This document shows positions 8,274-63,917 of a stretch of DNA of 64,000 bases, in pieces. Position numbers and translations under genes: made by a program. The DNA comes from a bacterium (GTDB lineage Archaea; Thermoplasmatota; E2; JACPAO01; JAHFTW01): contig JAZJZE010000001.1 of assembly GCA_040390065.1 (NCBI GenBank), positions 337,102 through 401,101 of the forward strand, read 5' to 3'. Each line of letters begins with the position of its first letter. Position 1 is the stretch's first letter. Under the pieces are notes generated by a model. It saw nothing but the letters and a program-made list of their open reading frames with translations, did not search any database and was not told the DNA's origin.

Positions 8274-8631
8274 CGCAGCGTTCCTCGCCGCTTCGCGGCA
8301 TCGGCAAACCTGTCCTGGCACCTACGACGTGCTCGCTTCGCTCGCGGTCTCAGTGCACAGGACAGGATTTGGCGCTGCGGCCGCGCAGGCGCAGCCGCAG
8401 CGTTCCTCGCCGCTTCGCGGCATCGGCAAACCCTGCCCATGCACCTGTCTGTCGCCGGCGGGCGCTCGGCGCCGCCGATGCGACGCGACTTAGTGCACAG
8501 GACAGGATTTGGCGCTGCGGCCGCGCAGGCGCAGCCGCAGCGTTCCTCGCCGCTTCGCGGCATCGGCAAACCCTGCCCATGCACCTGTCTGTCGCCGGCG
8601 GGCGCTAGGCGCCGCCGATGCGACGCGACTT
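8274..8631. repeat. Tandem 140-bp repeat (2 full units plus a diverged partial unit), each unit ending in the 3' end of tRNA-Leu
   Basis: AGTGCACAGGACAGGATTT at 8352-8370, 8492-8510 and, in the real tRNA, 8632-8650. Units 8352-8491 and 8492-8631 are nearly identical by eye. Confidence 0.85.
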
Positions 8632-8633
8632 AG

Positions 8634-8715
8634 TGCACAGGACAGGATTTGAACCTGCGAACCACAAAGGAGAAGGCCCTGAACCTTCCGTCGTTGGCCA
8701 CTTGACTACCTGTGC
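8634..8715 (-). tRNA. tRNA-Leu (anticodon CAG), type II, no intron, no encoded CCA
   Basis: Manual cloverleaf: acceptor GCACAGG/CCTGTGC, D arm GTC..GAC, anticodon arm GAAGG-TTCAGGG-CCTTC, long variable arm, T arm GCAGG-TTCAAAT-CCTGT, discriminator A. Confidence 0.85.
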
Positions 8716-8792
8716 ATTTGGGGAAAAGGGCCAGCCCTTGCGGAGGGCTGCATCCGGCCGACTTCAGGTTGGCACTTGAGGGTTGCGCCCAG

Positions 8793-8910
8793 GCGAACCA
8801 CAAAGGGGAAGGCCGTAGCCCTCGGGCCATCAGGTCCGAGGGCGCGACGTGGACGCCGCGAAGCGGCGGCCCGGCCAACCTTCCGTCGTTGGCCACTTGA
8901 CTACCTGTGC
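8793..8910 (-). pseudogene. Truncated, disrupted copy of the tRNA-Leu 5' part
   Basis: The first 34 nt and the next 22 nt (1 mismatch) match the tRNA. The CAG triplet is replaced by a 62-nt two-hairpin insert (8815-8876). No T arm or 3' acceptor strand follows. Confidence 0.75.
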
Positions 8911-8950
8911 AGACGGTTGGGAAGAGGGGAGAAGTGGATTCCCTTGAACC

Positions 8951-9745
8951 TTACATCTCGAGTTCGCCGATGGCGTCCGCGAAGCGCTTGAAGCGCTCGC
9001 CCAGGAGGTCGAGGGCCTTCATGAGGGCGTCCTCGGCCTTGAGCGACCCGTCCGTCTCGAAGCGGAAGATGAACTTGCGGTCGTCGTAGGTGATCTTGAG
9101 GCCGCCCTGCGTCAGCTTCTCGGCTTCGTCCGCGCGGTTGATCTCCTCGGGCTGCAGGATGACGAGCTTGCCGCCATCGAGTCCCAGGATCCCCGCAGGC
9201 GTGCGGGCGACGGCTTCCTTGGCCGCCTCGGGCTTGATCTTGCGATTGTCCAACGTCGCCGTCGGGTAGTACTTGTAGCCGACCGCGGAGCAGACTTGCC
9301 ACTTTGCGTGCTGCGTGCCGTCGCCGAGGATGGCTTCGGCCTCGAGGATGAGGCGCTGGCCTTCCAGGAGGTCAACGAGCGGGACCTTCGCGTCCACGAT
9401 GCTGAACTTCTTGTCCTCGGGCTCGAGGTCGCCGGAGTACACCGTGCACGGGCCCTCCTTGGTGAGGGTGTAGCGCACGAGGTACGTCGGCTTGCCTTCG
9501 GCGTCGACTTGGCCCTTCATGTTGAGCGTGGAGGGGTCGGTCGGCACCGGCAGCAGGCCGATGCGGTGGGCCAGGATCTCGTCGAAGAGCGCGGAGGTGT
9601 TGTCGTAGAACGTCACCTTGTCGATGGCGAGCTTGGGCACTTCCGACAACAGGACGCGGCGCAGGGCATTGACGAAGTACGGGTGAACGCCGTCGATGAC
9701 GAGCTTGCACTCGCGGTCCGTGACGTTGCGAATCTCGATCTTCAT
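8951..9745 (-). CDS. rpoD: DNA-directed RNA polymerase subunit D (Rpo3)
   Basis: MKIEIRNVTDRECKLVIDGVHPYFVNALRRVLLSEVP. Last gene of the S13-S4-S11-RpoD block. A GTG at 9754 is an alternative start. Confidence 0.9.
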   Translation of the reverse strand: MKIEIRNVTDRECKLVIDGVHPYFVNALRRVLLSEVPKLAIDKVTFYDNTSALFDEILAHRIGLLPVPTDPSTLNMKGQVDAEGKPTYLVRYTLTKEGPCTVYSGDLEPEDKKFSIVDAKVPLVDLLEGQRLILEAEAILGDGTQHAKWQVCSAVGYKYYPTATLDNRKIKPEAAKEAVARTPAGILGLDGGKLVILQPEEINRADEAEKLTQGGLKITYDDRKFIFRFETDGSLKAEDALMKALDLLGERFKRFADAIGELEM

Positions 9746-9754
9746 GTCAAGCAC

Positions 9755-10144
9755 CTACACGCGCCGGCCGCGGCGGCCACCCTTCTTGCGGCAGCCGTCG
9801 TGCGGGATGGGAGTGACGTCCTCGATGCGGCCGACCATGATGCCGTTGCGTGCCAGGCCGCGGATGGCGGCTTGGGCGCCGGGGCCGGGGCTGCGGGCCT
9901 TGTTGCCGCCGTAGCCGCGCACGCGGATGTCGACCGTCGTGAAGCCTTTCTCCTTCAGGGCCTCGGCGATGCGCTGGGCGCACGCCATGGCTGCGAAGGG
10001 ACCGCCCTTGTCCTTGTCGGACTTGACGGCCATGCCGCCCGAGGCCTTCGCCACCGTCTCGGCGCCCGTGGCGTCGGTGACGGTGATGAGCACGTTGTTG
10101 TAGCTCGCGAAGATGTGCGCGATGCCGCGCTTGTCGGCGCTCAT
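9755..10144 (-). CDS. rps11: 30S ribosomal protein S11 (uS11)
   Basis: [33 protein letters not shown]; operon position. Confidence 0.95.
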
Positions 10145-10746
10145 GCACTACCTCCCGGACCGGTGGCGCCGGCCGGGGCCGGAGCCTCCGCCAGCGACGG
10201 CGCCGGCGTCTCGAAGCCCTGCGCCTTGGGGCGCACGGGGTGGTTCTCGTCGGCGATGGCGGCGGTGGGGTCGATCATGATCTGTTCCTCTTCGCCGCGG
10301 CGCACGACGTACGACGGCACCGTCACGCGGCGGTCGCCAATCTTGATGTTGCCGTGGCTCACGAACTGGCGCGCCTGCTTGGGCGTGCGGGCCAATCCCT
10401 TGAGGTAGACCTGCGTCTGGAGGCGGCGGTTGAGGACGCGCTCCAGATCCAGGCCCAGCACTTCGTTGAGCGTCGCGTTGTCGCCGAGGTAGCCGCTGCG
10501 CTGCAGGCGGGCGATGAGCAGGCGCGACTCAGTCACGGCCTGTTCGTCCGCCGGGTTGCGCGTGCGGGCGATGAGGGCACGGGCCTGGCCGCGCACGTCG
10601 CGCAGGATGGTCTGGGCCTTCCAGATCTCGGTCTTGTTCTTGAGACCGTACTTGGACTTGACTTCGTTCTCCGCTTTGATGCGTTCGCCTTGCCACGGGT
10701 GGCTCGGCGTGTCGTAGTGGCGGCGGTTGAATTTGGGCTGGCCCAT
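10141..10746 (-). CDS. rps4: 30S ribosomal protein S4 (uS4)
   Basis: [23 protein letters not shown].., S4 domain [26 protein letters not shown]. Confidence 0.95.
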
Positions 10747-11481
10747 CTACTTCTTGCCTCCTGCGGGTTTGGCGGGGGCGCCTGCAGCGGGCTTCGCCGG
10801 GGCTGCGGCCGCCTTGGCCTGGGCACCCTGTGCTGCGCTGGGGGCTGCGGCGGGCTTGGCGCCGCCGAGCGGCTTGGCCCCTCCGCCACCGGCGGCCTTC
10901 GGGGCCGCGGCTGCGGCCGGTGCGCCTTCGGCACCGGGTGCGGGCTGGCCCTCGATCTTGCGCTGCACACCGACAGCGGAGCCGAAGCGTCCGTTGTTCT
11001 TGGTGCGCTGGCCGCGCGTCGGGAGCTTCTTCTCGTGGCGGTGGCCGCGCCAGGAACGGATCTTCTTGAGGCGGTTGAGGTCCTCGCGGAGCATGATGGT
11101 GATCTCGGTGCCGATCATGTGGCGGTCGTCGCCGGACTCGGGGTCCTTGCGGCGGTTGACCATCCACGCGGGCAGCATCTCGGTCAGGCCTTCGATGGCG
11201 GCGTTGACGGCGGCAATCTCGGGGTCCTTGAGGTTCCCGATGCGCTCGTCGGGGTCGACGTTGGCTTCGCGGGCGACGACGTACGCCAGGCGCTTGCCGA
11301 CGCCGGGGACGTAGGCGAGGGCGGTGGCGACGTTCTTCTTGCCGTCCAAGTCGGTGTTGACGAGGCGGACCAGGTGGCGGAAGTCGGGGCCGAACTCGAT
11401 CTTCTTGGCGGGTTCGGATTTCTCCTTCGGCGGGCCTTTCGGGGTCTCCGCCTTCGTGTCGGGCTTGGTGTTCTCTGCCAT
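10747..11481 (-). CDS. rps13: 30S ribosomal protein S13 (uS13) with Ala/Pro/Lys-rich C-terminal tail
   Basis: ATG at 11481 (MAENTKPD..). Core FRHLVRLVNTDLDGKKNV..SWRGHRH. The upstream part of the track ORF overlaps gene 11711..12331 and is rejected. Confidence 0.9.
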   Translation of the reverse strand: MAENTKPDTKAETPKGPPKEKSEPAKKIEFGPDFRHLVRLVNTDLDGKKNVATALAYVPGVGKRLAYVVAREANVDPDERIGNLKDPEIAAVNAAIEGLTEMLPAWMVNRRKDPESGDDRHMIGTEITIMLREDLNRLKKIRSWRGHRHEKKLPTRGQRTKNNGRFGSAVGVQRKIEGQPAPGAEGAPAAAAAPKAAGGGGAKPLGGAKPAAAPSAAQGAQAKAAAAPAKPAAGAPAKPAGGKK

Positions 11482-11626
11482 GGTGACTCCCCCCTCGCCT
11501 CGAAGGGCGCGAGGATCGATGCCGATGCGAACCGTGGAACCGAAGTTCCAGCGGCGTGGCGTGGGCGAACCCACGTCCGCCCGGGTTGCCCCGGACGCTT
11601 CTGCAAGCTTCGCGACAAAGGGGATG

Positions 11627-11634
11627 TATAAAAG
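11627..11634 (-). promoter_or_regulatory. TATA-box-like element (CTTTTATA) upstream of the rps13 operon
   Basis: The only strong A/T octamer in the 11482-11710 spacer. It sits ~145 nt upstream of the rps13 ATG, implying a long leader. Confidence 0.4.
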
Positions 11635-30939: not shown

Positions 30940-32340
30940 CTACGCTTCGTCGACGGCGTCGCCAACGCGGCCGGCCGCGACGCCGCCACCGCCCATCTGC
31001 GCGCCCGTCTTCGAGGTCTTCACGAAGACGCGCGGCTTGCGCAGCACGAACTCATCGAAGAACGCTGCCCAGGCGACGATGCTCAGCATGGTGTAATACA
31101 CGGGGAGGAAGGGCAGGGCGGCCACTTCGCGCCATTCGTGGCGGACACCGTCGATGGCATCGCGCACCATCATCGTGGCCCAGGACACAAACGGCGCCAC
31201 GGCGGCCGCCGTCCAGATCCAAGTCCATTGCGACGGCAAGGCCCCCACGTCGTACCCGAAGCGCCCAAGGATGCCAAGCGGCAGCAGCAGGATCAGCGCC
31301 ATCGGGATGAAGACGTATACGAACGTGAGGTACAGGTCGAGGCGCGGCAGGGCACGCACGCGCAGGCGATGGATGCGCGGCAAGTAGTGGGCTGCAACCT
31401 GGAACCAGCCGCGCGCCCAGCGCTTGCGTTGCGCCCACCAGGCCGCAAGGCGGGCGGGGTTCTCCTCGTGGGTCTGGATGCCCGGGTCGACGCGCAGGCG
31501 GCCGCCGCTGGCGTGGATGCGCACCGAGTAGTCGATGTCCTCGACGAGCTGCTCCTCCGAGTAGCCGCCGACGCGGTCGAACACCGACCGCCGGAAGAAC
31601 ACCTGGCCACCGCCGAAGAACGTGAAGCCGGAGGCCAGCTGTCGGGCGTAGATGTCGCCGCGTTCCAGGATGTCGCGCTCGATGCGCATCATGAGCGCCA
31701 GGGGCGATTCGCGGCCGTTCAGCCCAATGGCGCGTCCCTTGATGCAGTCGAGCTTCGGGTCGGCGAGGAACCAGCGGGCGGCGCGCTGCACGGCGTCGGG
31801 CTTGAGGACTTGGTCGGCGTCGAGGCCAACGAGGATGTCGCCGTGGCACTGCGCCACACCGTCGTTGAAGGCAGCGGACTTGCCCGGCCGGCCGCCGGAG
31901 CGCTCGAACACGCGGAAGCGCGGGTCGCGTTCGGCCTGGTCGCGAAGGAGTTGCTGCGTGCCGTCGTTCGAGCGCGATTCGCAGACGTACAGGAACTCGA
32001 TGCGGTCACGCGGATAGTCGACGTGGGCGAGGGCCGCCATGGACCGCGGCAGGACGTTGGCCTCGTTGTACGTGGGGATGAGGATGGTGACGCGCGGCCA
32101 TTCGGCGCCGTCGGGCTTGGCGGGCGGTTCCGGGTTGCGGCGCAGCCCCGCGATGCACGAGCCGTAGGTCCGCACGAGGGGGAACGCCATGAGGGCCACG
32201 AGGACCACGCCGACCACGGCGAAGTAGTGGGGCACGAAGAAGCCGGGGACGAGCAGCAGGAGCGTGCAAGCCAGCATGGCGAGCGTGGTGGCGACGATCT
32301 CGCCCCAGTCCGGGCGGTCGCGGTGCAGGCTCACTTCCAT
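30940..32340 (-). CDS. Membrane-embedded family-2 glycosyltransferase, processive beta-glycan synthase type
   Basis: ATG at 32340 (MEVSLHRD..). N-terminal TMs. Motifs LDADQ (DxD), VEDIDYS (ED), QRKRWARG (QxxRW). C-terminal TM bundle. Confidence 0.85.
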   Translation of the reverse strand: MEVSLHRDRPDWGEIVATTLAMLACTLLLLVPGFFVPHYFAVVGVVLVALMAFPLVRTYGSCIAGLRRNPEPPAKPDGAEWPRVTILIPTYNEANVLPRSMAALAHVDYPRDRIEFLYVCESRSNDGTQQLLRDQAERDPRFRVFERSGGRPGKSAAFNDGVAQCHGDILVGLDADQVLKPDAVQRAARWFLADPKLDCIKGRAIGLNGRESPLALMMRIERDILERGDIYARQLASGFTFFGGGQVFFRRSVFDRVGGYSEEQLVEDIDYSVRIHASGGRLRVDPGIQTHEENPARLAAWWAQRKRWARGWFQVAAHYLPRIHRLRVRALPRLDLYLTFVYVFIPMALILLLPLGILGRFGYDVGALPSQWTWIWTAAAVAPFVSWATMMVRDAIDGVRHEWREVAALPFLPVYYTMLSIVAWAAFFDEFVLRKPRVFVKTSKTGAQMGGGGVAAGRVGDAVDEA

Positions 32341-33761
32341 GGCATGGCCTCTTCGAGGATGGACTCCGCCCGGACGGGCGCGACGGCGGGGGCGGCGGGC
32401 AAGGCGGGCTCCGCGCCGGTTTTGGACGTCTTCACGTACACCGGCTTCGTCCGCAGCACGAACTCGTCGAGGAAGGCGCTTGCGAACACGGCGCCCTGCA
32501 GGACAAGGTAGGGCCAAAGGAGCGGCACGGCCAACCACTCGACGGCCGCGTGCTTCACGCCGTCGCGCCGGTCGTGCCACCACATGCCGATCCAGGCCAC
32601 GGTGGGCATCGCCGCGAAGAAGATGCCGCCGAAGGTCTCGACGGCTTGCGGGAAGAACGTGCGGACGTGGATGCCGAGGAAGGGCATGATGACGAACGGC
32701 AGCGTCATCAGCAGCACGACCGGCAGGAGCGAGAACGCGAGGTTGTAGAACAGGTCGGCGCGCATGCCAAGCGGTGCGCGGTTCATGGTCGACAGGTGCG
32801 GCAGGTAGCGCTCCACCAGTTGCATGCCGCCGCGCGTCCAGCGCGTGCGCTGCGCCCACCACGCCGACCAGTTGGCCGGGTGCTCCTCATGGCTAATCAC
32901 GAACGGGTCGACGACAAGGCGGTAGCCGGCCTGGTGGATGCGCACCGAGAAGTCGATGTCCTCGATCAGGACCTCCTCGTCGAAGCGGCCGATCTGCTCG
33001 AACAGGCTGCGGCGGAAGAACGCCTGGCCGCCGCCGAAGAACGTGAAGCCGCCGACGACCTCGCGGAAGTAGGTCTCGCCGCGCTCGACGACGTCGCGTT
33101 CGAGCGTCGTGCACAGGGCCAGCGTCGACTCCGTCGCGTTCACGGCCATGGGGCGACCCTTCACGCAGGCGATGTTCGGGTCCGACAGGAACCAGCGCAC
33201 GGCGCGCTCGATGGCGTCCGGCTTGAGGGCGTGGTCCGCGTCCAAGGAGACCAGGATTTCGCCCGTGCAGTGGTCGAGGCCGAAGTTGCACGCCGCCGCC
33301 TTGCCGCCGCGCTTGTCGTTTCGTTCGACCGGCACGATGCGCGCGTCGCGTTCGGCAAAGGAGCGGATGATCGCGGCCGTCGCGTCGGTGCTGCGCTTCT
33401 CGTAGACGTACACGAACTCGATGCGGTCGCGGGGGTAGCGCACATGCTCCATCGCAGCCATCGTGCGTGGCAGGACCGCCGCCTCGTTGTAGGCGACGAT
33501 GAGGACGGACACGGTCGGCCACTCGATGCCGTCGGGCTTTGCCGGGGGGTCCACGGGGCGTCGACCGGTCAGGATCGTGGCCGCCAGGGTGCGCACGCCG
33601 AGGATGGCCAGGCCGACGAAGCCGGCGGTGGCAAGCACGCGGAAGTAGCCGTCGACGTACAGGCCGGGGGCGAGGGCCAGGAGGAGCAGGCCGAGGCCGA
33701 TGCCGAGCTTGCGCGCCACGTCGCGTGGCCGTGCGCGCCTGCCCGACAGCTTGACCTCCAT
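32331..33761 (-). CDS. Membrane-embedded family-2 glycosyltransferase, processive type (paralogue of 30940..32340)
   Basis: ATG at 33761 (MEVKLSGRR..). Motifs LDADH, IEDIDFS, QRTRWTRG. 10-nt overlap with the downstream paralogue. Confidence 0.85.
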   Translation of the reverse strand: MEVKLSGRRARPRDVARKLGIGLGLLLLALAPGLYVDGYFRVLATAGFVGLAILGVRTLAATILTGRRPVDPPAKPDGIEWPTVSVLIVAYNEAAVLPRTMAAMEHVRYPRDRIEFVYVYEKRSTDATAAIIRSFAERDARIVPVERNDKRGGKAAACNFGLDHCTGEILVSLDADHALKPDAIERAVRWFLSDPNIACVKGRPMAVNATESTLALCTTLERDVVERGETYFREVVGGFTFFGGGQAFFRRSLFEQIGRFDEEVLIEDIDFSVRIHQAGYRLVVDPFVISHEEHPANWSAWWAQRTRWTRGGMQLVERYLPHLSTMNRAPLGMRADLFYNLAFSLLPVVLLMTLPFVIMPFLGIHVRTFFPQAVETFGGIFFAAMPTVAWIGMWWHDRRDGVKHAAVEWLAVPLLWPYLVLQGAVFASAFLDEFVLRTKPVYVKTSKTGAEPALPAAPAVAPVRAESILEEAMPWK

Positions 33762-33860
33762 CGCATTGTCTCCCGGGCAGGCCCCACCGGACCCGCCGCA
33801 CCCTCGCACGACCTCCCCACATTCATGAAGGTATGGGTTGACTTCCTTCCTGGGGCGAGG

Positions 33861-33866
33861 AAAAAA
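33861..33866 (-). terminator. T6 run 14 nt downstream of the 33880..35640 stop codon
   Basis: GGAAAAAAGG on the plus strand. Archaeal oligo-T terminator-like. Confidence 0.3.
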
Positions 33867-33879
33867 GGCGGCGTTGCGG

Positions 33880-35640
33880 CTACCGGTGGTAGGCCGCGTC
33901 GAAGTCCTTGCGGGCCGTTGCATCCTTCAGGATGGTCGCGGCGTAGACGTCGGATCCGGCCAGCCGGCCCGCCTCGCCCGTGTGCCGTGTGTCCGCCCAG
34001 AAGACCGTGGCCGATTCCTTGCTCGTGTCCAGCCCGATGTAGTCGCCGATGAAGGGCGCGCCGCTCTGGTGGTGGCCGAGGTCGCCATCGAACGAGCGCT
34101 CCGTCACGCGCACGTTGGGGTGGAAACTGTCGCCGCCGTTGTCCGAATAGGCGTAGTACACGTCGAGCAGGCGGTTGTCCGGCGAGTTGCGCCGGTCGTA
34201 CCACGCGACGTGCACCCCGCCCAGCGGGTCGACGTCGACCCAGGGCACGAATTGGTCGCCCTTCTCCGTGTCGCTGACGCGCACCGGTGCACTCCAGGCC
34301 ATGCCATCGTCGGAGTGCCGCATCATGAGCTGCACGTCCGTGTTGACGCGCCCGGTCTGCTCGGCGTAGACGACGTAGCGCCGGCCATCGTGGGCCCCGC
34401 CGGATGTATCGATGGCGAGCACCGGGTACGTGGCGACGCGGAAATGGCTGGGTCCGGTTCCGTCGCGCGGGCCGACGCTTGGGTCGGACTTGATGGGCGA
34501 GATGGTGAACGTCGACATGACGGGGGCGAAAACGGTGCCGCCGGGTGTGACCGTCCCTTCCGTGTACGACAGTTGGTCGCCGTTCGGGTGGACGCCCACG
34601 GGCAGGGTTCCGTCGGTGTCGGCCGCCCAGATGACAGCGACGCGCGGCATGCCGCCGGGACCGTTGGGCAGATACTGCGGCATGGAGAATTGCGAATCGA
34701 GGCCGCTCGACGTGCCGGGGGCGAACGTGTGCTGCGGGCCCCAGGTCTTGCCACCGTCCATGCTCTCGCAATAACTGATGACGCTCGTCGACTGCGCGAG
34801 CAGGCCGGTCGGGTCGGGGACGCCGCTGGGCAGCGGCGGCGTCGAGTAGTACGGTGTCCACGTCACGATCGCATGGTCGCCGCCCGGCTGCAACGCGAAC
34901 CACTGCTTGTCATTGAATTGGATGCCGTTGTCGCCGACACCGCAGAACGAGATGGCGCCGAAGGTCTTGCCGCCGTCCGTGCTGGTTGCGAAGTAGATCT
35001 GTGTTGCCGTGGTGGCGTCCGTCGACCCCGGATAGACCGGGTTGGGCTGGCTCGGAACCTGACCGGCATGCGCACCGCCGTAGTTGAGGCCCGAGAACAC
35101 GAAGGTGCCATCGTCGTCGAACGCCACGACCGGGTCCGTGTTGCAGGTGTTTCCAGAGATGGCGCTTGGACGCTTGTCGCCGGGGAAGCCAGGCATGAGG
35201 TCGTCGTTCCACGTCAGGCCGCCGTCCAGGCTGGAGAACGTGCCCATCCACACGTTGTATTTCCCGCAACCTGCGCCGCCCCCGAGGTAGGAGACCGTGT
35301 AGTCCTTCGCGCCGCCCGCGACGTTGAGCGGGTTCGTCGGATTCACGGCGACGGACACCTCGTTGCCCGGCCCATGCTGCGTCGTCCAGTCCATCGTGTG
35401 GTTGTCGACGAGCGGATGCGTCACGCGATGGTTGCACTCGTCGATGCCGGCCTGCGACGCCGCCGCCCCGATGCGGTAGCCGGCATTGCACAGGAAGATG
35501 GTGTACGGTGCGGCGCCCGCCAGGTCGGAGTCGGTCGCCGTCGGGGGCAACGCCGGCCCCGTGTCGTCGCTGCCGCCGAAACAGCCGGCCAGCAAGGGGA
35601 CCAGAAACGCCGCCAGGGCAAGTGCGGGCTTTGCCTTCAT
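33880..35640 (-). CDS. BNR/Asp-box beta-propeller lipoprotein (sialidase/glycosidase-like fold)
   Basis: MKAKPALALAAFLVPLLAGC lipobox. Asp-boxes SLDGGLTW, STDGGKTF, SMDGGKTW, HSDDGMAW, SDNGGDSF. Confidence 0.8.
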   Translation of the reverse strand: MKAKPALALAAFLVPLLAGCFGGSDDTGPALPPTATDSDLAGAAPYTIFLCNAGYRIGAAASQAGIDECNHRVTHPLVDNHTMDWTTQHGPGNEVSVAVNPTNPLNVAGGAKDYTVSYLGGGAGCGKYNVWMGTFSSLDGGLTWNDDLMPGFPGDKRPSAISGNTCNTDPVVAFDDDGTFVFSGLNYGGAHAGQVPSQPNPVYPGSTDATTATQIYFATSTDGGKTFGAISFCGVGDNGIQFNDKQWFALQPGGDHAIVTWTPYYSTPPLPSGVPDPTGLLAQSTSVISYCESMDGGKTWGPQHTFAPGTSSGLDSQFSMPQYLPNGPGGMPRVAVIWAADTDGTLPVGVHPNGDQLSYTEGTVTPGGTVFAPVMSTFTISPIKSDPSVGPRDGTGPSHFRVATYPVLAIDTSGGAHDGRRYVVYAEQTGRVNTDVQLMMRHSDDGMAWSAPVRVSDTEKGDQFVPWVDVDPLGGVHVAWYDRRNSPDNRLLDVYYAYSDNGGDSFHPNVRVTERSFDGDLGHHQSGAPFIGDYIGLDTSKESATVFWADTRHTGEAGRLAGSDVYAATILKDATARKDFDAAYHR

Positions 35641-43597: not shown

Positions 43598-43807
43598 TCA
43601 ACCGCCACTGAACGCCGACAGCAGGACAAGGGTCTCGCCATCGACGACGGGCTCGTCCTCGGGGACCGGCGTCGAGCCGCGAATGGCAAGCGTGTGGTCC
43701 GGCGATTGACCGACGGCGCGAAGCACGTCCCCAACCGTCGCACCGGGCGACAAGGCGACGTCGCGGGGCGGCTCTCGGGCGGGTCGGAAGACAATGCGGA
43801 CCTGCAA
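43598..43807 (-). CDS. ThiS/MoaD-family ubiquitin-like small protein (SAMP-like) ending in Gly-Gly
   Basis: 69 aa. ..ATVGDVLRAVG..VPEDEPVVDGETLVLLSAFSGG*. TTG start 1 nt after the tRNA-Ser 3' end. Confidence 0.6.
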   Translation of the reverse strand: MQVRIVFRPAREPPRDVALSPGATVGDVLRAVGQSPDHTLAIRGSTPVPEDEPVVDGETLVLLSAFSGG

Positions 43808-43808
43808 G

Positions 43809-43891
43809 CGCCGAGGGCAGGATTTGAACCTGCAAATCCAGGGGACACTGGTTTTCGAGACCAGCGCAATACCGGGTTATGCGACCTCGGC
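43809..43891 (-). tRNA. tRNA-Ser (anticodon CGA), type II
   Basis: Manual cloverleaf: acceptor GCCGAGG/CCTCGGC, anticodon arm CTGGT-CTCGAAA-ACCAG, variable arm, T arm GCAGG-TTCAAAT-CCTGC, discriminator G. Confidence 0.88.
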
Positions 43892-44308
43892 AGGTAAGTC
43901 GGCCGACTTGTGGCCGCTATTTCCAGGTTTCGTGCCGTGCGAGCGCGACGCGCGAGCCATCAGGGGGTCGCGGGGGGCGGTAAGCCCCCCCGCAGGTCCG
44001 CGGGGCCGCAGGCCCCGCTGCCCAAATGATCGACCTGTTTGCAGGTCGAGGGACACTGGTTTTCGAGACCAGCGCAATACCGGGTTATGCGACCTCGGCA
44101 GGTAAGTCGGCCGACTTGTGGCCGCTATTTCCAGGTTTCGTGCCGTGCGAGCGCGACGCGCGAGCCATCAGGGGGTCGCGGGGGGCGGTAAGCCCCCCCG
44201 CAGGTCCGCGGGGCCGCAGGCCCCGCTGCCCAAATGATCGACCTGTTTGCAGGTCGAGGGACACTGGTTTTCGAGACCAGCGCAATACCGGGTCATGCGA
44301 CCTCGGCA
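43842..44308. repeat. Tandem 208-bp repeat (2 full units plus a truncated third), each carrying the first 50 nt of tRNA-Ser plus a 158-nt hairpin-rich spacer
   Basis: Units 43842-44049 and 44050-44257 are identical by eye. The third copy ends ~44308 with one substitution (44294). The ORF track shows the same 66-aa peptide twice (43877..44077, 44085..44285). Confidence 0.9.
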
Positions 44309-44340
44309 GAAGGGCGCTGGGGCGGAGGCCAGGGCTCGCC

Positions 44341-44348
44341 TATATTCC
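44341..44348. promoter_or_regulatory. TATA-like TATATTCC between the tRNA-Ser repeat array and the subtilase gene
   Basis: The only A/T-rich patch in the spacer. ~38-45 nt upstream of ATG 44386 and ~35-40 nt upstream of the outermost tRNA 5' fragment on the other strand. Confidence 0.3.
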
Positions 44349-44385
44349 CATTTCGAGGGGCCGCAGGTCGACCCACCCAAACCTC

Positions 44386-49702: not shown

Positions 49703-50322
49703 TTGCCATGGCGACCTACTACTCCACCGTCAGCGATTCCGAAACCACCGCTCGCGCCTATGGCCGCGACCTGGACTGCTCCCCGAAGAGCGGCCGCAAC
49801 GTCGCCCGCGCCATCAAGGGCATGCCCGTCGCGCGCGCCAAGACCTTCCTGCAGGAAGTTGCCGAGCTCAAGACGCCGGTCCCCTTCAAGGTCCGCAACC
49901 GCAAGATCCACCACCGGCGCGGCCAGGGCTTCGGCCCCGGCAAGTACCCGGTCGGCACGGTCACGCGTATGCTCAAGGTGCTCGAGTCCGCCGAGGCGAA
50001 CGCCGAATACAAGGGGCTCGACAAGGAGCGCCTCGTCATCACGCACGCCACGGCCTACCAAGGCACCGTGAACCAGGCGTTCACGCCGCGCGCCCAGGGC
50101 CGCGCAACGCCGCACTACAACCGCAAGTGCAACTTCGAGGTCATCGTCAGCGTCATCGAGGAGGACGAGGAGTCGGCGTCGCCCCGCAAGGGCCGCGCCG
50201 CCAAGTCCGCCAAGACCGCGAAGCCGAAGGCAGAGAAGGGCGAGAAGGCCGAGGCCAAGGGCGCCAAGGCCGACAAGCCGGCCCCGAAGGCCACGAAGGA
50301 GTCCAAGGGAGCTGAGAACTGA
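49699..50322 (+). CDS. rpl22: 50S ribosomal protein L22 (uL22) with Lys/Ala/Glu-rich C-terminal tail
   Basis: ARAYGRDLDCSPKSGRNVARAIKGM. GTG 49699 overlaps the rps19 stop (ATG 49708 is an alternative). Confidence 0.92.
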   Translation: MIAMATYYSTVSDSETTARAYGRDLDCSPKSGRNVARAIKGMPVARAKTFLQEVAELKTPVPFKVRNRKIHHRRGQGFGPGKYPVGTVTRMLKVLESAEANAEYKGLDKERLVITHATAYQGTVNQAFTPRAQGRATPHYNRKCNFEVIVSVIEEDEESASPRKGRAAKSAKTAKPKAEKGEKAEAKGAKADKPAPKATKESKGAEN

Positions 50323-55078: not shown

Positions 55079-55606
55079 ATGTTCCGCTCCCGCTCCGTCC
55101 AGAACCGCAAATTCCGCACCGCCTCCACGCAGCCCCGAAAGCAGCGCAAGGCGATGTACGACGCGCCGCAGCACATTGCCCGCAAGGCGCTGGCCAGCCA
55201 CCTCTCCGAGGAGTTGCTGCTGAAGTACAACCGCCGCAGCCTCACCGTCATCAAGGGCGACGAGGTCAAGGTCCTGCGCGGCGACTTTGCCGGCAAGTCG
55301 GGCAAGATTATTGGCATCGATGTCCCGGCTCGCCGCGTCACCGTCGACGGTGTCGTGAACAAGAAGGCGGACGGCACCGAGGTCGCCCGCTCCATCCACC
55401 CGTCCAACCTGCTCCTGGTCAAGCTCAACCTCGAGGACAACCGCCGCCGCGAGAAACTCGCCGAGGCCGAAGAGTCCACGAAGATGGGCACCTCCAAGAA
55501 GGCGGCCAAGCAGCCGTCCAACAAGGGCAAGCCCGCCAAGAAGGAGGCCCCCGCCAAGGCGGAGGCCAAGCCTGAGCCGAAGAAAGAAGTGGAAGTGAAG
55601 GTATGA
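55079..55606 (+). CDS. rpl24: 50S ribosomal protein L24 (uL24) with Lys/Ala-rich C-terminal tail
   Basis: KQRKAMYDAP..LTVIKGDEVKVLRGDFAGKSGKI KOW motif. Confidence 0.93.
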   Translation: MFRSRSVQNRKFRTASTQPRKQRKAMYDAPQHIARKALASHLSEELLLKYNRRSLTVIKGDEVKVLRGDFAGKSGKIIGIDVPARRVTVDGVVNKKADGTEVARSIHPSNLLLVKLNLEDNRRREKLAEAEESTKMGTSKKAAKQPSNKGKPAKKEAPAKAEAKPEPKKEVEVKV

Positions 55607-56325: not shown

Positions 56326-57031
56326 GAATGAAAACAAGGGCGAGAACACCCGCGAGAACAAGTCCGGCAAGGACGCGCAGGGCTTCACGATCAAGGCCGA
56401 GAAGGCCGACAAGCCCGCCGCCAAGCCGGGCGCCAAGAACCCGTTGGCCACCGTGTACCCGGACCGCAAGCGCGCGGCCAAGGTCGCCAGGCCGGTCCTC
56501 ACCAAGATGGCCGCGGGCGCCACGAACCCGATGACGGTGCCCCGCATCGCCAAGGTCACCGTCAACATCGGTGTCGGCGACTCCGGCGAGAAGCTGGAGA
56601 AGGCCGAGAAGGTCCTGGCCAAGCTCACCGGCTGCAAGCCCGTGCGCACGCTCGGCCGCGAGATGAACCGCGAACTGAACGTCCGCCTCGGCCAGCCCAT
56701 CGGCTGCAAGGTCACCCTGCGCGGCGAGGACGCCGACTCGTTCGTCAAGCGCGCCCTCTACACGCGCAAGAACAAGGTGTACGAGTACTCCTTCGACAAC
56801 CAGGGCAACCTGCAGTTCGGCGTCACCGACTACACGAACTTCGAGGGCGAGCGCTACGACCCCGAGATCGGCGTCTTCGGCATGGACGTCTGCATCACGC
56901 TCGAGAAGCCGGGCTTCCGCGTCAAGCGCCGCCGCATGGTCGCGGCCAAGATCCCGGCCCAGCACCGCGTCACCCGCGACGAGGCCAAGGCCTTCCTGTC
57001 CAAGAAATTCGCCATCGAGGTGGTTGGATGA
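56318..57031 (+). CDS. rpl5: 50S ribosomal protein L5 (uL5), possibly with ~60-aa Lys/Ala-rich N-terminal extension
   Basis: Core [24 protein letters not shown]... TTG 56318 overlaps the rps4e stop. ATG 56507 would give a conventional N-terminus. Confidence 0.9.
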
Positions 57032-58147: not shown

Positions 58148-58705
58148 ATGACTCCGGACAAGAAGAAGGAATCCGCCGCCAAGAAGGCCGGCGAGAAGGC
58201 CCGCGCGAAGGCCGCAGCCAAGAAGGACACCAAGGAGCACAAGCCGGCCGCCACCGACGGCAAGCCGGAACCCAAGGCCGAGTCCTACAAGGCCCGCGCC
58301 AAGCCCAAGCTCACCGCCGACCAGAGCCAGGCCCTCGGCCTGCGCCGCGAGAAGCAGTCCAAGCGCCCAGCGTTCCGCCGCCACGAATGGTGGCGCTACG
58401 TCAAGCTCGGCGGCAAGAACGCCCCGTGGCGCGTCCCGAGCGGCATCCACTCCAAGGTGCGCCGCCACTTCAAGTACCGTCCGCCGGTCGTCTCGATTGG
58501 CTACCGCGGCCCCGCCGACGTGCGCGGGCTGCACCCGTCGGGCTTCGAGGAAGTGCTCGTGTACAACCCCGAGCAGCTCGCGAAGATCGACAAGACCACG
58601 CAGGCGGCCCGCATCGGCGGCACCGTCGGCGGCCGCAAGGCCAAGCTCATCGTGGAGGCCGCCGACAAGGCCGGCATCCGCGTCCTCAACCGAGGTGAGA
58701 ACTGA
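58148..58705 (+). CDS. rpl32e: 50S ribosomal protein L32e (eL32) with Lys/Ala-rich N-terminal extension
   Basis: Core RPAFRRHEWWRYVKLG..WRVPSGIHSKVR. Confidence 0.93.
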   Translation: MTPDKKKESAAKKAGEKARAKAAAKKDTKEHKPAATDGKPEPKAESYKARAKPKLTADQSQALGLRREKQSKRPAFRRHEWWRYVKLGGKNAPWRVPSGIHSKVRRHFKYRPPVVSIGYRGPADVRGLHPSGFEEVLVYNPEQLAKIDKTTQAARIGGTVGGRKAKLIVEAADKAGIRVLNRGEN

Positions 58706-60678: not shown

Positions 60679-61298
60679 GCACGGCCCGCCCCCCGATGGC
60701 GCACCGCGTCGGCTCCAAGACGGGAGCCTTCACCATCATCCGCCTGCGCGGCACGCAGAACCTCAACCCCAAGACGAAGGACACGCTGCGCTACCTGCGC
60801 CTCAACCGCGTCAACCACGCCGTCGTCCTGCCGCAGAACGAGACGACCATCGGCATGCTCCAGGTCGCCAAGGACTACGTCACTTGGGGCGAGGTCGACG
60901 CTGCAACGTTGTCCAGCGTCATCAAGTCGCGCGGCCGCGTCGTCGGCAACGGTCCCCTCACGGAGGCCCACGTCGCGAAGCACACGCCGTTCAAGACCAT
61001 CGACGCACTGGCCTCGGCCATCGTCGAGGGCAAGTTCCGCTACCAGGACGTGCCCGAGGTCAAGCCCCTGTTCCGCCTGCACCCGGCCCGCAACGGCCTG
61101 GAAGGCATCAAGCGCTCCGTCCAGGTGGGCGGCGCGCTCGGCTACCGCGGCCCGGCCATCAACAAGCTGCTTGGCAAGATGATCCACAGCGACAACGAGG
61201 GCACGGGCTCGACGGCGCCGAAACAGACCGTCAAGCAGCCCGCGAAGGTCGCCGCCACCTCCGTCCGCGCGGGCGCCCAGACATCGGGAGGTGCCTGA
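60675..61298 (+). CDS. rpl30: 50S ribosomal protein L30 (uL30)
   Basis: FTIIRLRGTQNLNPKTKDTLRYLRLNRVNHAVV; ATGA overlap with rps5. Confidence 0.93.
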   Translation: MSTARPPMAHRVGSKTGAFTIIRLRGTQNLNPKTKDTLRYLRLNRVNHAVVLPQNETTIGMLQVAKDYVTWGEVDAATLSSVIKSRGRVVGNGPLTEAHVAKHTPFKTIDALASAIVEGKFRYQDVPEVKPLFRLHPARNGLEGIKRSVQVGGALGYRGPAINKLLGKMIHSDNEGTGSTAPKQTVKQPAKVAATSVRAGAQTSGGA

Positions 61299-61299
61299 G

Positions 61300-61845
61300 A
61301 TGGCATCGGGTGGCAAAGCCAAGAAGATGCGCGGCAACCACACGCACGGACGCGGCAAGAAGGCCGGCCGTGGCGCGGGTCTGCAGGGCGGCCGCGGCCG
61401 CGCCGGCGCCAACAAGCACCGCTACCTCATGTTGCAGGTGCTCGGCGGCAAGCACGCCCACATGGCGGCCAAGCCGTGGGGCCGCATCGGCTTCAAGTAC
61501 CGCAGCCGCGACGGCAACCCGAAGCCGGAGTCGCTCAACGTCGGTGACCTCGCCCTGGTCTTCCCGGGCAAGTCCGACATCGACCTGACGCTCGCGGGCT
61601 ACGGCAAGTTGCTGGGTTCCGGCGACGTCGCTGGCAAGTTCACGGTCAAGGTGGAGTCGGCCTCGGCCGGCGCCATCGCGAAGGTCAAGAAGGCCGGCGG
61701 CAACGTCGTCCTCCCGGCCGGCGCCTCCCCAGAGGAGAAGGCCGCAGCGGCGAAGGCAGCCCAATCCAAGGCCGCGGCCGCCAAGCCCGCAGCAAAGGGT
61801 GCCCCCGCCAAGCCGGCGGACAAGCCCGCTCCGGCCAAGCCGTAG
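61300..61845 (+). CDS. rpl15: 50S ribosomal protein L15 (uL15) with Ala/Lys/Pro-rich C-terminal tail
   Basis: MASGGKAKKMRGNHTHGRGKKAGRGAGLQGGRG. GGGAGGTG upstream. GTG 61291 is an alternative start. Confidence 0.92.
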   Translation: MASGGKAKKMRGNHTHGRGKKAGRGAGLQGGRGRAGANKHRYLMLQVLGGKHAHMAAKPWGRIGFKYRSRDGNPKPESLNVGDLALVFPGKSDIDLTLAGYGKLLGSGDVAGKFTVKVESASAGAIAKVKKAGGNVVLPAGASPEEKAAAAKAAQSKAAAAKPAAKGAPAKPADKPAPAKP

Positions 61846-61944
61846 ATAGGTCAGGCCCGTTTTCCCCTTCTTTCCCTTCCTTCAAGTCCGAGCCCTTAAG
61901 AGGGAACCCTCTTTGGGCGCAACAATCCCCGGCTGGTCCCACAC

Positions 61945-63537
61945 ATGGCAGACACGGAGAAACGCAGTTCCCTCTACGCACTGGAGCCCCTCATCAAGAG
62001 GTGGCCTGCGGTCACGAAGCCTGAGGGTCACGTCTCGTTCAAGACGAAGCTCCTCTGGACGACCATTTGTCTCCTGCTGTACTTCGCGCTGTCGAACATC
62101 CCGCTCTTCGGGGTGTCGAACCAGCAGCTCGACATCTTTGCGAGCTTCCGCGCCGTCTTGGCCGGCCAGTCCGGCACTTTGATGCACCTGGGCATCGGCC
62201 CCATCGTCACCGGGTCCATCGTGATGCAGCTCTTCACGGGCGCCAAGATCATCAAGCTCGACCTCACGAAGGACGAGGACAAGGCGATCTACCAGGGCGC
62301 CCAGAAGATCATGGTCCTGCTGTTCATCTTCATCGAAGCCATCCCGCAAGTGTACGGCTTCCTCAACCCGGACCCGAAGTTCATCTCCTGGTTTGGCAGC
62401 CACAACATCGGCGGCGGCGAGGCCTGGTCCCGCAGTGTCATCATCGCGCAGTTGGCTCTCGGCGCCATCATCGTCTTCCTGATGGACGAACTCATCTCCA
62501 AGTGGGGTATCGGTTCGGGCATTTCGCTCTTCATCGCGGCCGGTGTGAGCCAGTCGCTGTTCCAAGGCACCTTGTCTTGGCAGCCGTCGAACGCGGGCCT
62601 TGGCAACCACTACAACCCCATCACGAACCCGCCCGTCGGGGCCATTCCCATGGCGGGATACGTGTTCTGGAACCGTGACTTGCAAAGCATGGTGCATGGG
62701 CAAGGCTTCGAGAACGTCTTCATCGGCGGCGGCAACTTCCCCAACCCACTCATCGCCTTCTTCGGCACGATCATGATCTTCATGTTCGTGGTCTACGCGG
62801 AAGCAAGCCGCATCGAGTTGCCCCTCGCGCACGGCAAGGTCCGCGGCGCCCGCGGCCGCTACCCGCTGCGCCTCATCTACGCCTCGAACATCCCGGTCAT
62901 CCTGATGGCCGCGCTGCTCGCGAACATCAACATCTTCAGCCTGCTTCTCTGGCAGCACCCAACGTTCAGTCACATCCCCGGCATCGGCCACTCCTGGTGG
63001 GTCGGCACGTACGAGACCGGCGGCGGCTCGACGCAGCCCATCGCCGGCGGCGCCTGGTACCTGCAGCAGTTCCGAGGATTGTCCGATTGGTTCCTGCCCC
63101 TGTTCGACCCGCGCTACAGTGGGCTTGCCCACGGCCACGTGTGGTGGCAGATCCTCATCAAGATCACGTTGTTCCTGGGCCTCTTCATCGGCGGCTCCAT
63201 CATGTTCGCCAAGTTCTGGGTCGACACGACGAACATGGGCCCCCATGACGTGGCCAAGCAGATCGAGAAATCCGGCATGCAGATTCCCGGCTTCCGCCGT
63301 GACCCGCGCGTGCTGGAGAAGGTCCTCGAACGCTACATTCCAACTCTTACCATCATCGGTGGTGCGACGGTCGGTGCTCTGGCAGCCGTTGCCGACATGA
63401 TCGGTACCGTCGGCCAGGCGTCCGGTACTGGATTGCTGCTCTGCGTCGGCATTTTCATGAGGATGTACGAGCAGATTGCGAAGGAACAGGTCATGGAAAT
63501 GCACCCCGTGCTCCGTGGCTTCTTCGGCGCGGAATAG
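61945..63537 (+). CDS. secY: Preprotein translocase subunit SecY
   Basis: 530 aa, 10-TM pattern, LLWTTICLLLYFALSNIPLFGV.. Follows rpl15 as in all prokaryotic spc-type operons. Confidence 0.95.
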   Translation: MADTEKRSSLYALEPLIKRWPAVTKPEGHVSFKTKLLWTTICLLLYFALSNIPLFGVSNQQLDIFASFRAVLAGQSGTLMHLGIGPIVTGSIVMQLFTGAKIIKLDLTKDEDKAIYQGAQKIMVLLFIFIEAIPQVYGFLNPDPKFISWFGSHNIGGGEAWSRSVIIAQLALGAIIVFLMDELISKWGIGSGISLFIAAGVSQSLFQGTLSWQPSNAGLGNHYNPITNPPVGAIPMAGYVFWNRDLQSMVHGQGFENVFIGGGNFPNPLIAFFGTIMIFMFVVYAEASRIELPLAHGKVRGARGRYPLRLIYASNIPVILMAALLANINIFSLLLWQHPTFSHIPGIGHSWWVGTYETGGGSTQPIAGGAWYLQQFRGLSDWFLPLFDPRYSGLAHGHVWWQILIKITLFLGLFIGGSIMFAKFWVDTTNMGPHDVAKQIEKSGMQIPGFRRDPRVLEKVLERYIPTLTIIGGATVGALAAVADMIGTVGQASGTGLLLCVGIFMRMYEQIAKEQVMEMHPVLRGFFGAE

Positions 63538-63917
63538 CGCGCAGCGCGTTCCGCCGACGGGAGCCGGAGCCGGGCGCATCCAGGCCAGGTTCCCGCAATG
63601 TGCTCGCAGCGAGGCCCGCAGGGCCGAGCGGACCTACGGCTGCGCCTCAGCGCGGCCGTAGGGCACGAAGGGCGACGCCGCAGCGTCGCCCGACAGCAGA
63701 TTGCGAAGGAACAGGTCATGGAGATGCATCCGGTTCTGCGCGGCTTCTTCGGGGCCGAATAGCGCGCAGCGCTTCGGCCTTCGAAGGCCGTGCAGAACAG
63801 CGCGCCCGAGCGATGCGAAGCGAGCGTGGGCAAGCGGACCCTGCGGTTGCGCTTCAGCGCGACCGCAGGGGTGGCGAGCGACGCCGCAGCGTCGCGAGCC
63901 GTGCTCCGTGGCTTCAC
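63470..63917 (+). repeat. Re-copied secY 3' end: second 78-bp copy at 63695-63772, third 17-bp fragment at 63899-63915, separated by related hairpin-rich spacers
   Basis: Copy 2 encodes the same 21 residues plus stop as the secY C-terminus, with 8 third-position differences. Spacer hairpins at 63633-63662 / 63839-63870 and 63671-63690 / 63878-63895. Confidence 0.85.

Follow-up and report, generated by a model that had tools for sequence, protein, structure and literature searches.

Stacked copies of tRNA and secY gene ends in an uncultured Thermoplasmatota archaeon as candidate hairpin-guided integrative modules

We wondered why the ends of three unrelated genes should be found copied, several times over, right beside the intact genes. 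The question arose from a 64 kb stretch of DNA (contig JAZJZE010000001.1, positions 337,102 to 401,101; here called the window) with ~68% G+C and archaeal core genes, in which tRNA-Leu, tRNA-Ser and secY each stand next to displaced copies of their own terminus. A preliminary description had portrayed every one of these loci as an intact gene with one to three tandem modules, each made of a gene-end copy and GC-rich hairpins, and its repeats and coordinates are correct. Indeed, the modules are tandem, measure 140-225 bp each and contain no open reading frames (ORFs), and the three loci are the only sites of short-range gene-end duplication in the window (3 of ~55 gene ends). We propose that the units are integrative modules, non-autonomous and guided by hairpins, each of which brings along a rescue copy of the gene end that it targets, a reading to which we give an even chance.

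Transfer RNAs were called with ARAGORN and Rfam, and tandem arrays with Tandem Repeats Finder and a repeat finder. At the 3' end of tRNA-Leu a 140-bp unit is repeated 2.1 times (8352-8651, 99% identical), and the last 19 nt of the tRNA are copied at the end of each unit (8353-8371, 8493-8511 and 8633-8651). The tRNA-Ser array consists of a 208-bp unit (2.2 copies, 43842-44309), and a 52-nt 5' part of the tRNA occurs three times with 100%, 100% and 98% identity. At secY, the 78-nt end (63470-63547) recurs 225 bp downstream (63695-63772, 90% identical) and a 17-nt piece is copied once more at 63899-63915. Copy numbers inside identical tandem arrays derive from short-read assembly and may be inexact.

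We compared these loci with those of relatives (designated by L-numbers; secY loci came from genome and metagenome collections and from exact-protein look-ups). In agreement with the view that the modules are insertions, they are polymorphic for presence and absence, with zero to three per gene and clean empty sites. Displaced secY ends occur in six genomes, as two units each in the window and L038 and as one in L001, L004, L005 and L028; three genomes (L002, L003, L027) have the secY hairpin core without a displaced copy, and five (L006, L007, L008, L024, L090) are empty. One to three units ending in a tRNA-Leu 3'-end copy follow that gene in all six genomes examined, where the design recurs down to 76% RpoD identity. 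A displaced pseudo-copy of the tRNA-Leu 5' part is present in the window and in L089, which keeps the window's 5' design, and absent from L029, L030, L032 and L034. L029 provides the clean empty site for this 5' unit, and L035 the one for the tRNA-Ser unit. Read against the empty sites, the units are insertions that brought along a working gene end, often with native flank (a stop codon or a promoter-like box, for example), and displaced the resident end intact.

Displaced secY copies start at three points: site A before GAGCAGAT, site B before C(C/A)(G/T)TGCTCCG and site C before GTCATGGA. In the window, the nearest displaced copy (X2) differs from the working end (X1) at eight positions, all of them synonymous. 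Seven comparisons in five genomes yielded 45 differences between working and displaced ends, 40 of which lie in synonymous codon pairs (21% expected at random; P ~6e-22), and the remaining five all fall in the codon that holds the junction. Divergence of this almost purely synonymous kind implies that the displaced ends once worked as gene ends in diverged lineages. By their codons, these copies did not decay as junk after a local duplication, and synonymous divergence between the lineages in question is substantial. An element carrying its own copy of the target end would be expected to displace secY ends that, like these, are alleles which once worked. The L089 tRNA-Leu pseudo-copy, which shows a compensatory change in the anticodon stem relative to the working tRNA, makes the same point. 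Nesting at secY is coherent: the site-B unit (window, L038, L001) lies distal and the site-A unit proximal, which makes the site-A unit the later one. The site-B unit of the window is orthologous to those of L038 and L001, and these two keep a full-length version, through the stop codon, of the oldest displaced end. In diversity-generating retroelements, repeats at a gene 3' end differ at adenines of the template repeat and a reverse transcriptase is encoded nearby. Such an element was rejected as the source of the variation, as only one of the eight window differences involves A, all are synonymous, and no reverse transcriptase match was obtained among the window ORFs tested.

What the units have in common becomes apparent when they are read away from the gene. 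A typical unit comprises the gene-end copy (X), a linker with the stop codon or native flank in it, the antisense counterpart of X (X'), a short hairpin with a GNA loop (hpA), GAGCGGAC and a terminal, covarying hairpin (H); the position of GAGCGGAC holds GAGGAA in the tRNA-Leu units and GGAC in the mini unit. The antisense X', the long gene-end hairpin, GAGCGGAC and the junction at the hairpin base had all escaped the preliminary description. X' is present in many spacers and matches the first 11-24 nt of X, with duplex energies of z -2 to -7.8 against shuffles in eight units (-4.2 in secY unit A and -5.0 in tRNA-Leu 3' unit 1). It fits the junction in use: site A units carry the antisense of GAGCAGAT, and the site C unit carries that of GTCATGGA. 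All six informative units have an X' that pairs far better with its own, gene-proximal X than with the displaced X (by 7-10 kcal/mol, DNA parameters). Moreover, X' follows the synonymous changes of X compensatorily. The pair at site B is GTTCTGCGCGGC/GCCGTGCAGAAC in the window and GTTCTCAGAGGC/GCCTTTGAGAAC in L001, and at site A an Ala third-codon position pairs G-C, A-T or C-G depending on the genome.

Predicted minimum-energy folds of eleven whole units agree on a long hairpin plus two hairpins. In these folds X, linker and X' would form a single long imperfect hairpin with its apex near the stop codon or tRNA end. The next X starts 0-5 nt past the last hairpin, at the nucleotide paired with the last base of X', placing the junction at the base of the X:X' helix. 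For hairpin H, 93% of cells are paired, nine of 14 pairs have changed on both sides, and none of 500 shuffles matched this. The strand reading away from the gene is the more stable one in all units folded, with 41 G.T pairs and one A.C mismatch compared to 12 and 14 on the opposite strand.

The preliminary description had placed all three loci in one family. A covariance model (R1) was built from ten secY cores alone and used to scan 353 kb. It matched both complete tRNA-Leu 3' units at full length on the tRNA-sense strand (41.1 bits, E 6.5e-6; unit 1 at 8511-8569), and no other sequence in the 353 kb scored comparably; secY unit A itself gave 67 bits. As a model trained on secY only finds the tRNA-Leu units, secY and tRNA-Leu 3' units belong to one family. 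Plain BLAST between spacers returned short motifs only, and a structure-aware model was needed to see the relationship. The single family thus holds for secY and the tRNA-Leu 3' end, whereas the tRNA-Ser and tRNA-Leu 5' units of the window lack the layout.

The order X, inverted X', X is also the one expected of tandem inversion duplication, in which replication or repair errors at hairpin-prone sequence (snap-back template switching), followed by slippage, would generate the stacks without any element. Such direct-inverted-direct copies are known from Salmonella. The 99-100% identical units at tRNA-Leu and tRNA-Ser are most simply explained by slippage or unequal crossing-over, and errors of this kind probably account for the last step at these two genes. 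As an explanation of the units as a whole we consider template switching quite improbable. It predicts identical copies, whereas secY X1 and X2 are diverged alleles with synonymous differences only and spacers S1 and S2 are strongly diverged from each other. It also leaves no place for a conserved core of 50-60 nt between X' and X that is unrelated to the gene and common to loci, and the junctions, read directly from the sequences, have no consistent microhomology.

X1 and X2 resemble alleles of different strains, and a metagenome assembly artefact could have strung the alleles of co-existing strains in tandem. The tRNA-Leu tandem array of L089 contains a scaffold gap (N-run, 6169-6266), and the L005 contig ends inside its secY array (4694-4706). 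Nonetheless we regard an artefact as very improbable. The hairpin-X junctions share no k-mer with the native junction between gene body and X, so an assembler could not have created them without spanning reads. In addition, the architecture recurs in independent assemblies from NCBI, ENA, JGI and Logan, and neither the fit of X' to its own X nor the junction at the hairpin base is what misassembly would be expected to yield. The gap in L089 and the contig end in L005 indicate that the arrays break short-read assemblies, and copy numbers in metagenome-assembled genomes (MAGs) are therefore probably underestimates.

The tRNA-Ser locus departs from the anatomy described above. Its spacers had been described as GC-rich stem-loops; they are largely a diverged copy, along their length, of the native upstream intergenic region, plus an extra segment of ~70 nt. 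A promoter-like box in the spacer is positioned so that it could drive the restored tRNA. On the 5' side of tRNA-Leu, the 76-nt spacer carries a version of the native pyrimidine-rich upstream motif and has no long gene-end hairpin. The two loci share the 9-mer GCCATCAGG, which the preliminary description had offered as a hint of a common motif. It lies at 8826, 43956 and 44164, each time in a hairpin loop as reported, and also in coding sequence at 5296, 37706 and 62901 (six matches versus 0.8 expected), and the 9-mer alone is weak evidence. The orthologous insert of L089, at the same anticodon-loop position 33/34, conserves GTAGCC and keeps CATCAG in a hairpin loop with five compensatory pairs, and the motif is therefore real. 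What it marks is a separate type of ~60-nt two-hairpin insert, represented by the extra segment at tRNA-Ser and the insert in the tRNA-Leu pseudo-copy, and not the module core. With its GCGGAC-like and GNA-loop motifs, this insert may be related to the core.

An interrupted tRNA copy calls to mind the split and intron-containing tRNAs of archaea, a reading that we rejected. In those, taking out the insert gives back a 7-nt anticodon loop and a full cloverleaf, and there are complementary leaders or a bulge-helix-bulge motif. The 5' copy is without T-arm and acceptor 3' strand, removal of the insert leaves a defective anticodon loop in both the window and L089, and the Rfam tRNA model gives no score. 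A trans-spliced tRNA-Leu assembled from the 5' pseudo-copy and the 3' fragments fails on the T-arm gap, on the defective anticodon loop and on the absence of complementary leaders. Rfam searches of the three loci, with gathering thresholds and with relaxed E-values, passed the two tRNAs and left all else far below gathering scores; CTGATG and GAGCGGAC, read as parts of a hammerhead or some other ribozyme, found no Rfam support.

Units at tRNA 5' ends that do carry an antisense copy were found in relatives. At tRNA-Ser of L037 there is one unit of 62 nt, which includes a 13-nt gene-end copy and the antisense of GCGACCTCGGC, and two similar units lie upstream of tRNA-Lys(UUU) in L034, which adds a third tRNA species. 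Both follow the layout X, X', GGAC or GTCGC, hairpin, X, and they are too short for model R1. Their structured strand is antisense to the tRNA, so that a rule at the level of DNA fits better than a transcript.

The strand of these 5'-end units bears on an explanation at the level of RNA. Here the units would be cis-acting structures of mRNA 3' untranslated regions or tRNA trailers (for stability, processing or termination), in which the transcript's own end pairs with the downstream antisense segment. The stacks would then reflect recombination, illegitimate or unequal, among the diverged alleles of a population that recombines and is polyploid, with no dedicated mobility. We consider this explanation unlikely. 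In its favour, covariation including G.U-type pairs is confined to the sense strand of secY and tRNA-Leu, X' tracks the working gene end, the solo core of L002, L003 and L027 sits at a conserved intergenic position without any displaced copy, and the tRNA-Leu arrangement is kept across distant relatives. However, the structured strand of the L037 and L034 units lies upstream of the tRNA and antisense to it, and a tRNA whose 3' end paired with X' would have to fold in competition with that pairing. Cis-acting RNA would also leave unexplained why displaced copies invariably begin at the base of the hairpin and why one core serves both secY and tRNA-Leu. Finally, no Rfam family was matched at the three loci, and no more than 3 of ~55 gene ends in the window bear units.

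Partial tRNA copies beside integrated elements are a standard archaeal footprint (PMC9897764), and a gene end with synonymous differences is typical of target-restoring attP sites. Both would be expected if the units were decayed remnants of kilobase-sized integrated elements, that is of proviruses or plasmids with tyrosine integrases, whose att sites were duplicated and whose interior was deleted. This origin seems improbable to us. Independent deletions would not leave the same covarying architecture of 100-160 nt (X', hpA, GAGCGGAC, H) in many genomes and genes, the junction varies (three secY sites) and tracks X' in place of a fixed core site, and no full-length element was found at these sites in at least 20 related loci. 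A fixed crossover core, which all att copies of one integrase would share, is likewise missing: the junction takes three positions in secY, and the starts of X at tRNA-Leu, tRNA-Ser, tRNA-Lys and secY have no motif in common.

The preliminary description had likened the modules to cis-mobilizable elements (CIMEs) and had noted that no integrase is visible in the window. The latter is correct: none was found among the window ORFs tested, and the modules are gene-less. As in tyrosine-integrase elements, CIMEs and accretion arrays, a conserved gene end is targeted and an element-borne end restores the gene (PMC9897764, PMC5704250). A displaced fragment marks the boundary, units stack in tandem and the module holds no recombinase, as in CIMEs, and target-derived direct repeats (att) flank the insert as X copies at all three loci. 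Unlike CIMEs and integrative elements, the units measure 60-225 bp and not kilobases, they carry an antisense target copy in a long hairpin, and their junction is set by a hairpin at several positions in one gene and not by a fixed core site. As neither an integrase nor a cognate autonomous element was found among ~30 window ORFs, nor any larger element at >20 related loci, the comparison holds as an analogy only. Att-flanked, tandem-stacked insertions that restore a conserved target gene without a recombinase of their own are already known in kind. New here are the size, the lack of genes, the antisense copy that pairs with the gene end into a long hairpin, the hairpin-set junction, and the occurrence of such units at the 5' and 3' ends of tRNA genes and at the end of a protein gene within one archaeal clade. 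The literature searched yielded no earlier description of the X-X'-core architecture.

The nearest precedent is found among integrative mobile elements exploiting Xer (IMEX). CTX-phi and its like enter the chromosome as a folded single DNA strand by way of host Xer recombinases (PMC3442271, PMC4246890). Inverted target copies in the single strand fold into the attachment site, and the host recombinase exchanges one strand pair (PMC3442271). The units resemble CTX-phi in their inverted target copies in one strand, in a predicted hairpin that would mimic the chromosomal duplex and in the lack of a recombinase of their own; the target is regenerated in both, so tandem arrays build up. They differ in that their targets are tRNA and secY ends, varied and without a common motif, and not dif, where XerC/D or XerA integrate IMEX, in that the host is archaeal and in that they have no genes. 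The X:X' hairpin with its strand-biased G.T pairs, from which alone single-stranded integration of the units is deduced, would fit a folded attachment site of this kind, and on sequence grounds it suits single-stranded DNA and RNA alike.

For the proposed integrative modules we envisage the following route. Gene-less modules of ~60-225 bp, folded as single-strand-structured DNA, would integrate within the last 11-78 nt of highly conserved genes, namely the 3' ends of tRNA-Leu and secY and, in relatives, the 5' ends of tRNA-Ser and tRNA-Lys. X' would pair with the target's X, or the X:X' hairpin would mimic the target duplex. The X:X' helix, the small hairpin and H would meet at one folded junction, which would bring the 3' end of H beside the first nucleotide of X and the last base before it, and a single-strand exchange at this point could integrate or excise the unit. 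Exchange between a free unit and a target, with X' lying on its X, would produce gene body, donor X, donor spacer and resident X. Because the module carries a replacement gene-end copy, the gene would stay intact while the resident end moves outward. Between copies, this exchange could give tandem arrays or circles. Stacks would grow by repeated events and be amplified by unequal crossing-over, and established units might also spread by homologous recombination, with gene body and displaced X as arms. The exchange would be catalysed by an enzyme encoded elsewhere, for which a tyrosine recombinase (Xer-like or of another kind), an HUH nuclease, or a junction resolvase together with a ligase are candidates; both the enzyme and the act of movement are what we infer from the sequences.

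A bolder version of this route takes X' for a guide that can be programmed: the element, gene-less and 60-225 nt long, would pick its insertion point by pairing with the target gene end, and a host enzyme would join it at a folded three-way junction, rescue copy included. We put this forward tentatively, as possible but doubtful. If true, the element would be a natural case of 'home-and-rescue', and archaea would have a new class of integrating DNA guided by nucleic acid. Integron attC sites and the ends of IS200/IS605 elements, including palindrome-associated transposable elements (PATEs), are single-strand hairpins recognised by structure, with short internal guides of ~4 nt. Like these, the units would be structured single-strand sites on a scale of 57-141 nt whose structure is conserved more than their sequence, and the base pairing of an internal segment with the site of cleavage or targeting comes closest as a precedent for X' in the role of a guide. 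In contrast to them, X' spans 11-24 nt and the target gene end is duplicated or replaced; neither IntI nor TnpA was found among the window ORFs tested.

Several other known systems were compared and set aside. PATEs bear subterminal hairpins, leave the target unduplicated and insert 3' of a conserved tetra- or pentanucleotide; the hairpins are present here, yet the target end is duplicated and the nucleotides before the junctions share no motif. A TnpB omega-RNA or guide-RNA reading, with a scaffold and then a flank that serves as guide, fails because X' pairs with X and the working X1 would be self-targeted, because the junctions are preceded by no common target-adjacent motif, and because no TnpB was seen. 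Casposons enter the 3' ends of tRNA or EF-2 genes, duplicate 14-15 bp and have terminal inverted repeats and a Cas1 gene. The likeness to casposons and to CRISPR repeat duplication lies in the archaeal host, the conserved gene 3' end, the direct target duplication, the X-S-X-S-X array and the entry of new insertions next to gene or leader. A casposon was rejected as window ORFs gave no Cas1 match, duplications of 13-78 nt are allelic, and unit ends are not inverted repeats. Miniature inverted-repeat transposable elements have terminal inverted repeats that are specific to the family, and they duplicate a short stretch of the target, always of the same length; this class was rejected as the sole inverted repeat (X/X') is target-derived and locus-specific and the duplication varies in length. 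In the intergenic mosaic elements of Neisseria, dRS3 repeats alternate with RS segments of 50-150 bp. These too alternate a short att-like repeat with small non-coding segments and are built by integration and recombination, but dRS3 is not gene-end-derived, there is no antisense copy or rescue function, and the hosts are bacterial.

A number of observations weigh against integrative modules. Among ~30 window ORFs tested there was no Pfam match to a recombinase, transposase, Cas1, HUH protein or integrase, nor did a candidate enzyme emerge anywhere else. Neither an excised circle nor a near-identical unit at two different loci was seen, and movement between loci thus follows from the shared core and not from observation. 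X' is undetectable by duplex energy against shuffles in some units (L029 S1, L030, L032), and the window's tRNA-Ser and tRNA-Leu 5' units neither fold into the long hairpin nor match model R1. Strand-specific, G.T-rich helices are also a classic signature of RNA structure, and a native, vertically inherited 3'-flank element would look just like the secY core without displaced copy in L002, L003 and L027. For a unit to take on a new target, X and X' would have to change in concert, which the proposed route does not account for. Finally, the core was not found on viral contigs: a scan with a conserved 28-mer gave 0 matches, and of the 50 loci matching a GAGCGGACC-hairpin pattern none exceeded 27 bits with R1. 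A blind scan of the window and the loci for further X...X'...X triplets was too noisy and yielded no new units.

If mobile, the units would be among the smallest integrating elements known. Their targeting principle, an antisense target copy that sets the junction, would be undescribed for integrative elements, and the bundled replacement gene end would keep an essential gene intact. Mobility would also explain the 'fossil' allele stacks at conserved genes of uncultured Thermoplasmatota, making them a direct record of gene flow between lineages, and would hint at structure-specific single-strand exchange by an enzyme still to be searched for. The arrays break short-read assemblies and yield pseudo-tRNA calls, and recognising them improves annotation of these genomes.

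Table 1. Coordinates of the units, their parts and neighbouring features (window positions unless a locus of a relative is named).
Feature	Position	Strand	Details
S13-S4-S11-RpoD cluster	ends at 8951	-	followed by tRNA-Leu
tRNA-Leu(CAG), intact	8633..8715	-	ARAGORN and Rfam; last 19 nt (8633-8651) = copy X1
tRNA-Leu 3' unit 1 spacer	8512..8632	-	linker hairpin in 8608-8629 region; X' 8567-8584 (antisense of tRNA 3' end); hpA GCCGCGAAGCGGC 8549-8561; GAGGAA, then H 8513-8542
Displaced copy X2 of tRNA-Leu 3' end	8493..8511	-	T-loop to discriminator +1
tRNA-Leu 3' unit 2 spacer	8372..8492	-	99% identical to unit 1; R1 match 8371-8429; X' 8427-8444; hpA 8409-8421; H 8373-8402
Displaced copy X3 of tRNA-Leu 3' end	8353..8371	-	motif coordinates
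Outermost tRNA-Leu 3' unit, truncated	8271..8352	-	contains GCGAGCGAAGCGAGC; X' variant GTGCCAGGACAGGTTTG 8305-8321; hpA 8287-8299; H broken beyond CGCTGCGG, no X after
Spacer between tRNA-Leu and its 5' pseudo-copy	8717..8792	-	76 nt
Displaced 5' pseudo-copy of tRNA-Leu	8793..8911	-	interrupted at anticodon-loop position 33/34; 8877-8911 = tRNA positions 1-33 plus 1-2 nt (35/35 identical); 8793-8814 = anticodon-stem 3' strand and variable arm
62-nt two-hairpin insert	8815..8876	+	splits the pseudo-copy; orthologous to L089 insert; hairpin 8818-8843 (loop GCCATCAGG), GCGACGTGGAC, hairpin GCCGCGAAGCGGC 8855-8867
tRNA-Ser(CGA), intact	43808..43891	-	ARAGORN and Rfam
tRNA-Ser unit 1	43842..44049	+	X1 43842-43893 (52-nt 5' part plus 2 nt); 156-nt spacer; promoter-like GGAAATAGCGG in tRNA sense 43914-43924; 9-mer hairpin 43951-43972; terminal hairpin 44030-44049
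tRNA-Ser unit 2	44050..44257	+	100% identical to unit 1
Outermost displaced copy X3 of tRNA-Ser 5' part	44258..44309	+	1 mismatch
Native tRNA-Ser upstream region	beyond X3		promoter-like box 44337-44349
HisRS; SAMP gene; S8 peptidase			window gene content; SAMP gene small, ubiquitin-like, adjoining tRNA-Ser
Large ribosomal-protein cluster			last gene secY
secY, intact	61945..63537	+	last gene of ribosomal-protein cluster
secY unit A	63470..63694	+	own X 63470-63547 (site A to stop +10); linker; X' 63585-63605; hpA 63613-63625; GAGCGGAC 63626-63633; H 63634-63661; extra hairpin 63672-63689
Displaced secY end X2	63695..63772	+	site A to stop +10; distal part = own X of unit B
secY unit B spacer	63763..63898	+	X' 63783-63800; AAGCGGAC 63832-63839; H 63839-63870; extra hairpin 63878-63895; 72 bits with R1
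Oldest displaced secY end X3, truncated (site B)	63899..63915	+	
tRNA-Lys(UUU) units, L034	20500-20720		in each, tRNA 5'-end copy GGGAGATTGG and complement GCCAATCTCCC around hairpin
CGAGCGAAGCGAGC sites	8326-8345; L001 3635-3650; L028 about 397-412; L029 about 10937-10950		
Conserved ORF after solo secY core	L002 4697-5060; L003 about 4770-5185; L027 431-835		~120-135 aa; motifs TTRKGAKTFQV, GVGPEGLY.WGILG
Lys/Ala/Pro-rich stretches	50233-50298; 55510-55579; 56392-56425; 58180-58255; 61782-61833		

As for the host, the window source is labelled 'MAG: bacterium' at NCBI, and close relatives (L001, L008, L009) are labelled 'uncultured Halobacteriales'. The nearest SecY and RpoD relatives of the window are uncultured Thermoplasmatota MAGs, and together with the gene content this makes both labels look like taxonomic errors.

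Some further features were noted around the three loci. The sequence CGAGCGAAGCGAGC (or its complement), with a very stable GCGAAGC mini-hairpin, recurs right after gene ends, where it opens many spacers in either orientation; it is not over-represented across the window (one match versus 1.1 expected). Downstream of secY, L008 has another repeat family in place of the hairpin modules (3860-4080), with several copies of the palindromic motif AACCGCGGATT / TCCGCGTAATCCGCG. A conserved ORF follows the solo hairpin core in L002, L003 and L027. Beside tRNA-Ser, a 69-aa SAMP/MoaD-type ubiquitin-like ORF ending in GG (43598-43807, minus strand) starts with TTG 1 nt beyond the tRNA 3' end. The same order of tRNA and SAMP gene in L035 and L037 suggests that the two are co-transcribed.

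In L029, the closest relative, a gene for a Type ISP restriction-modification enzyme and an ORF weakly resembling a DDE transposase (713-3418 and 6342-7772) are located upstream of the S13-RpoD cluster. Neither gene is present in the window, which points to a variable island beside the conserved S13-RpoD operon. Elsewhere in the window, two neighbouring paralogous family-2 glycosyltransferase genes (30940-33923, minus strand) share ~73% DNA identity across several hundred bases at a repeat spacing of 1421 bp. Lastly, several ribosomal-protein genes contain similar low-complexity stretches rich in Lys, Ala and Pro (AAGCCCGCC / AAGGCCGAC repeats).

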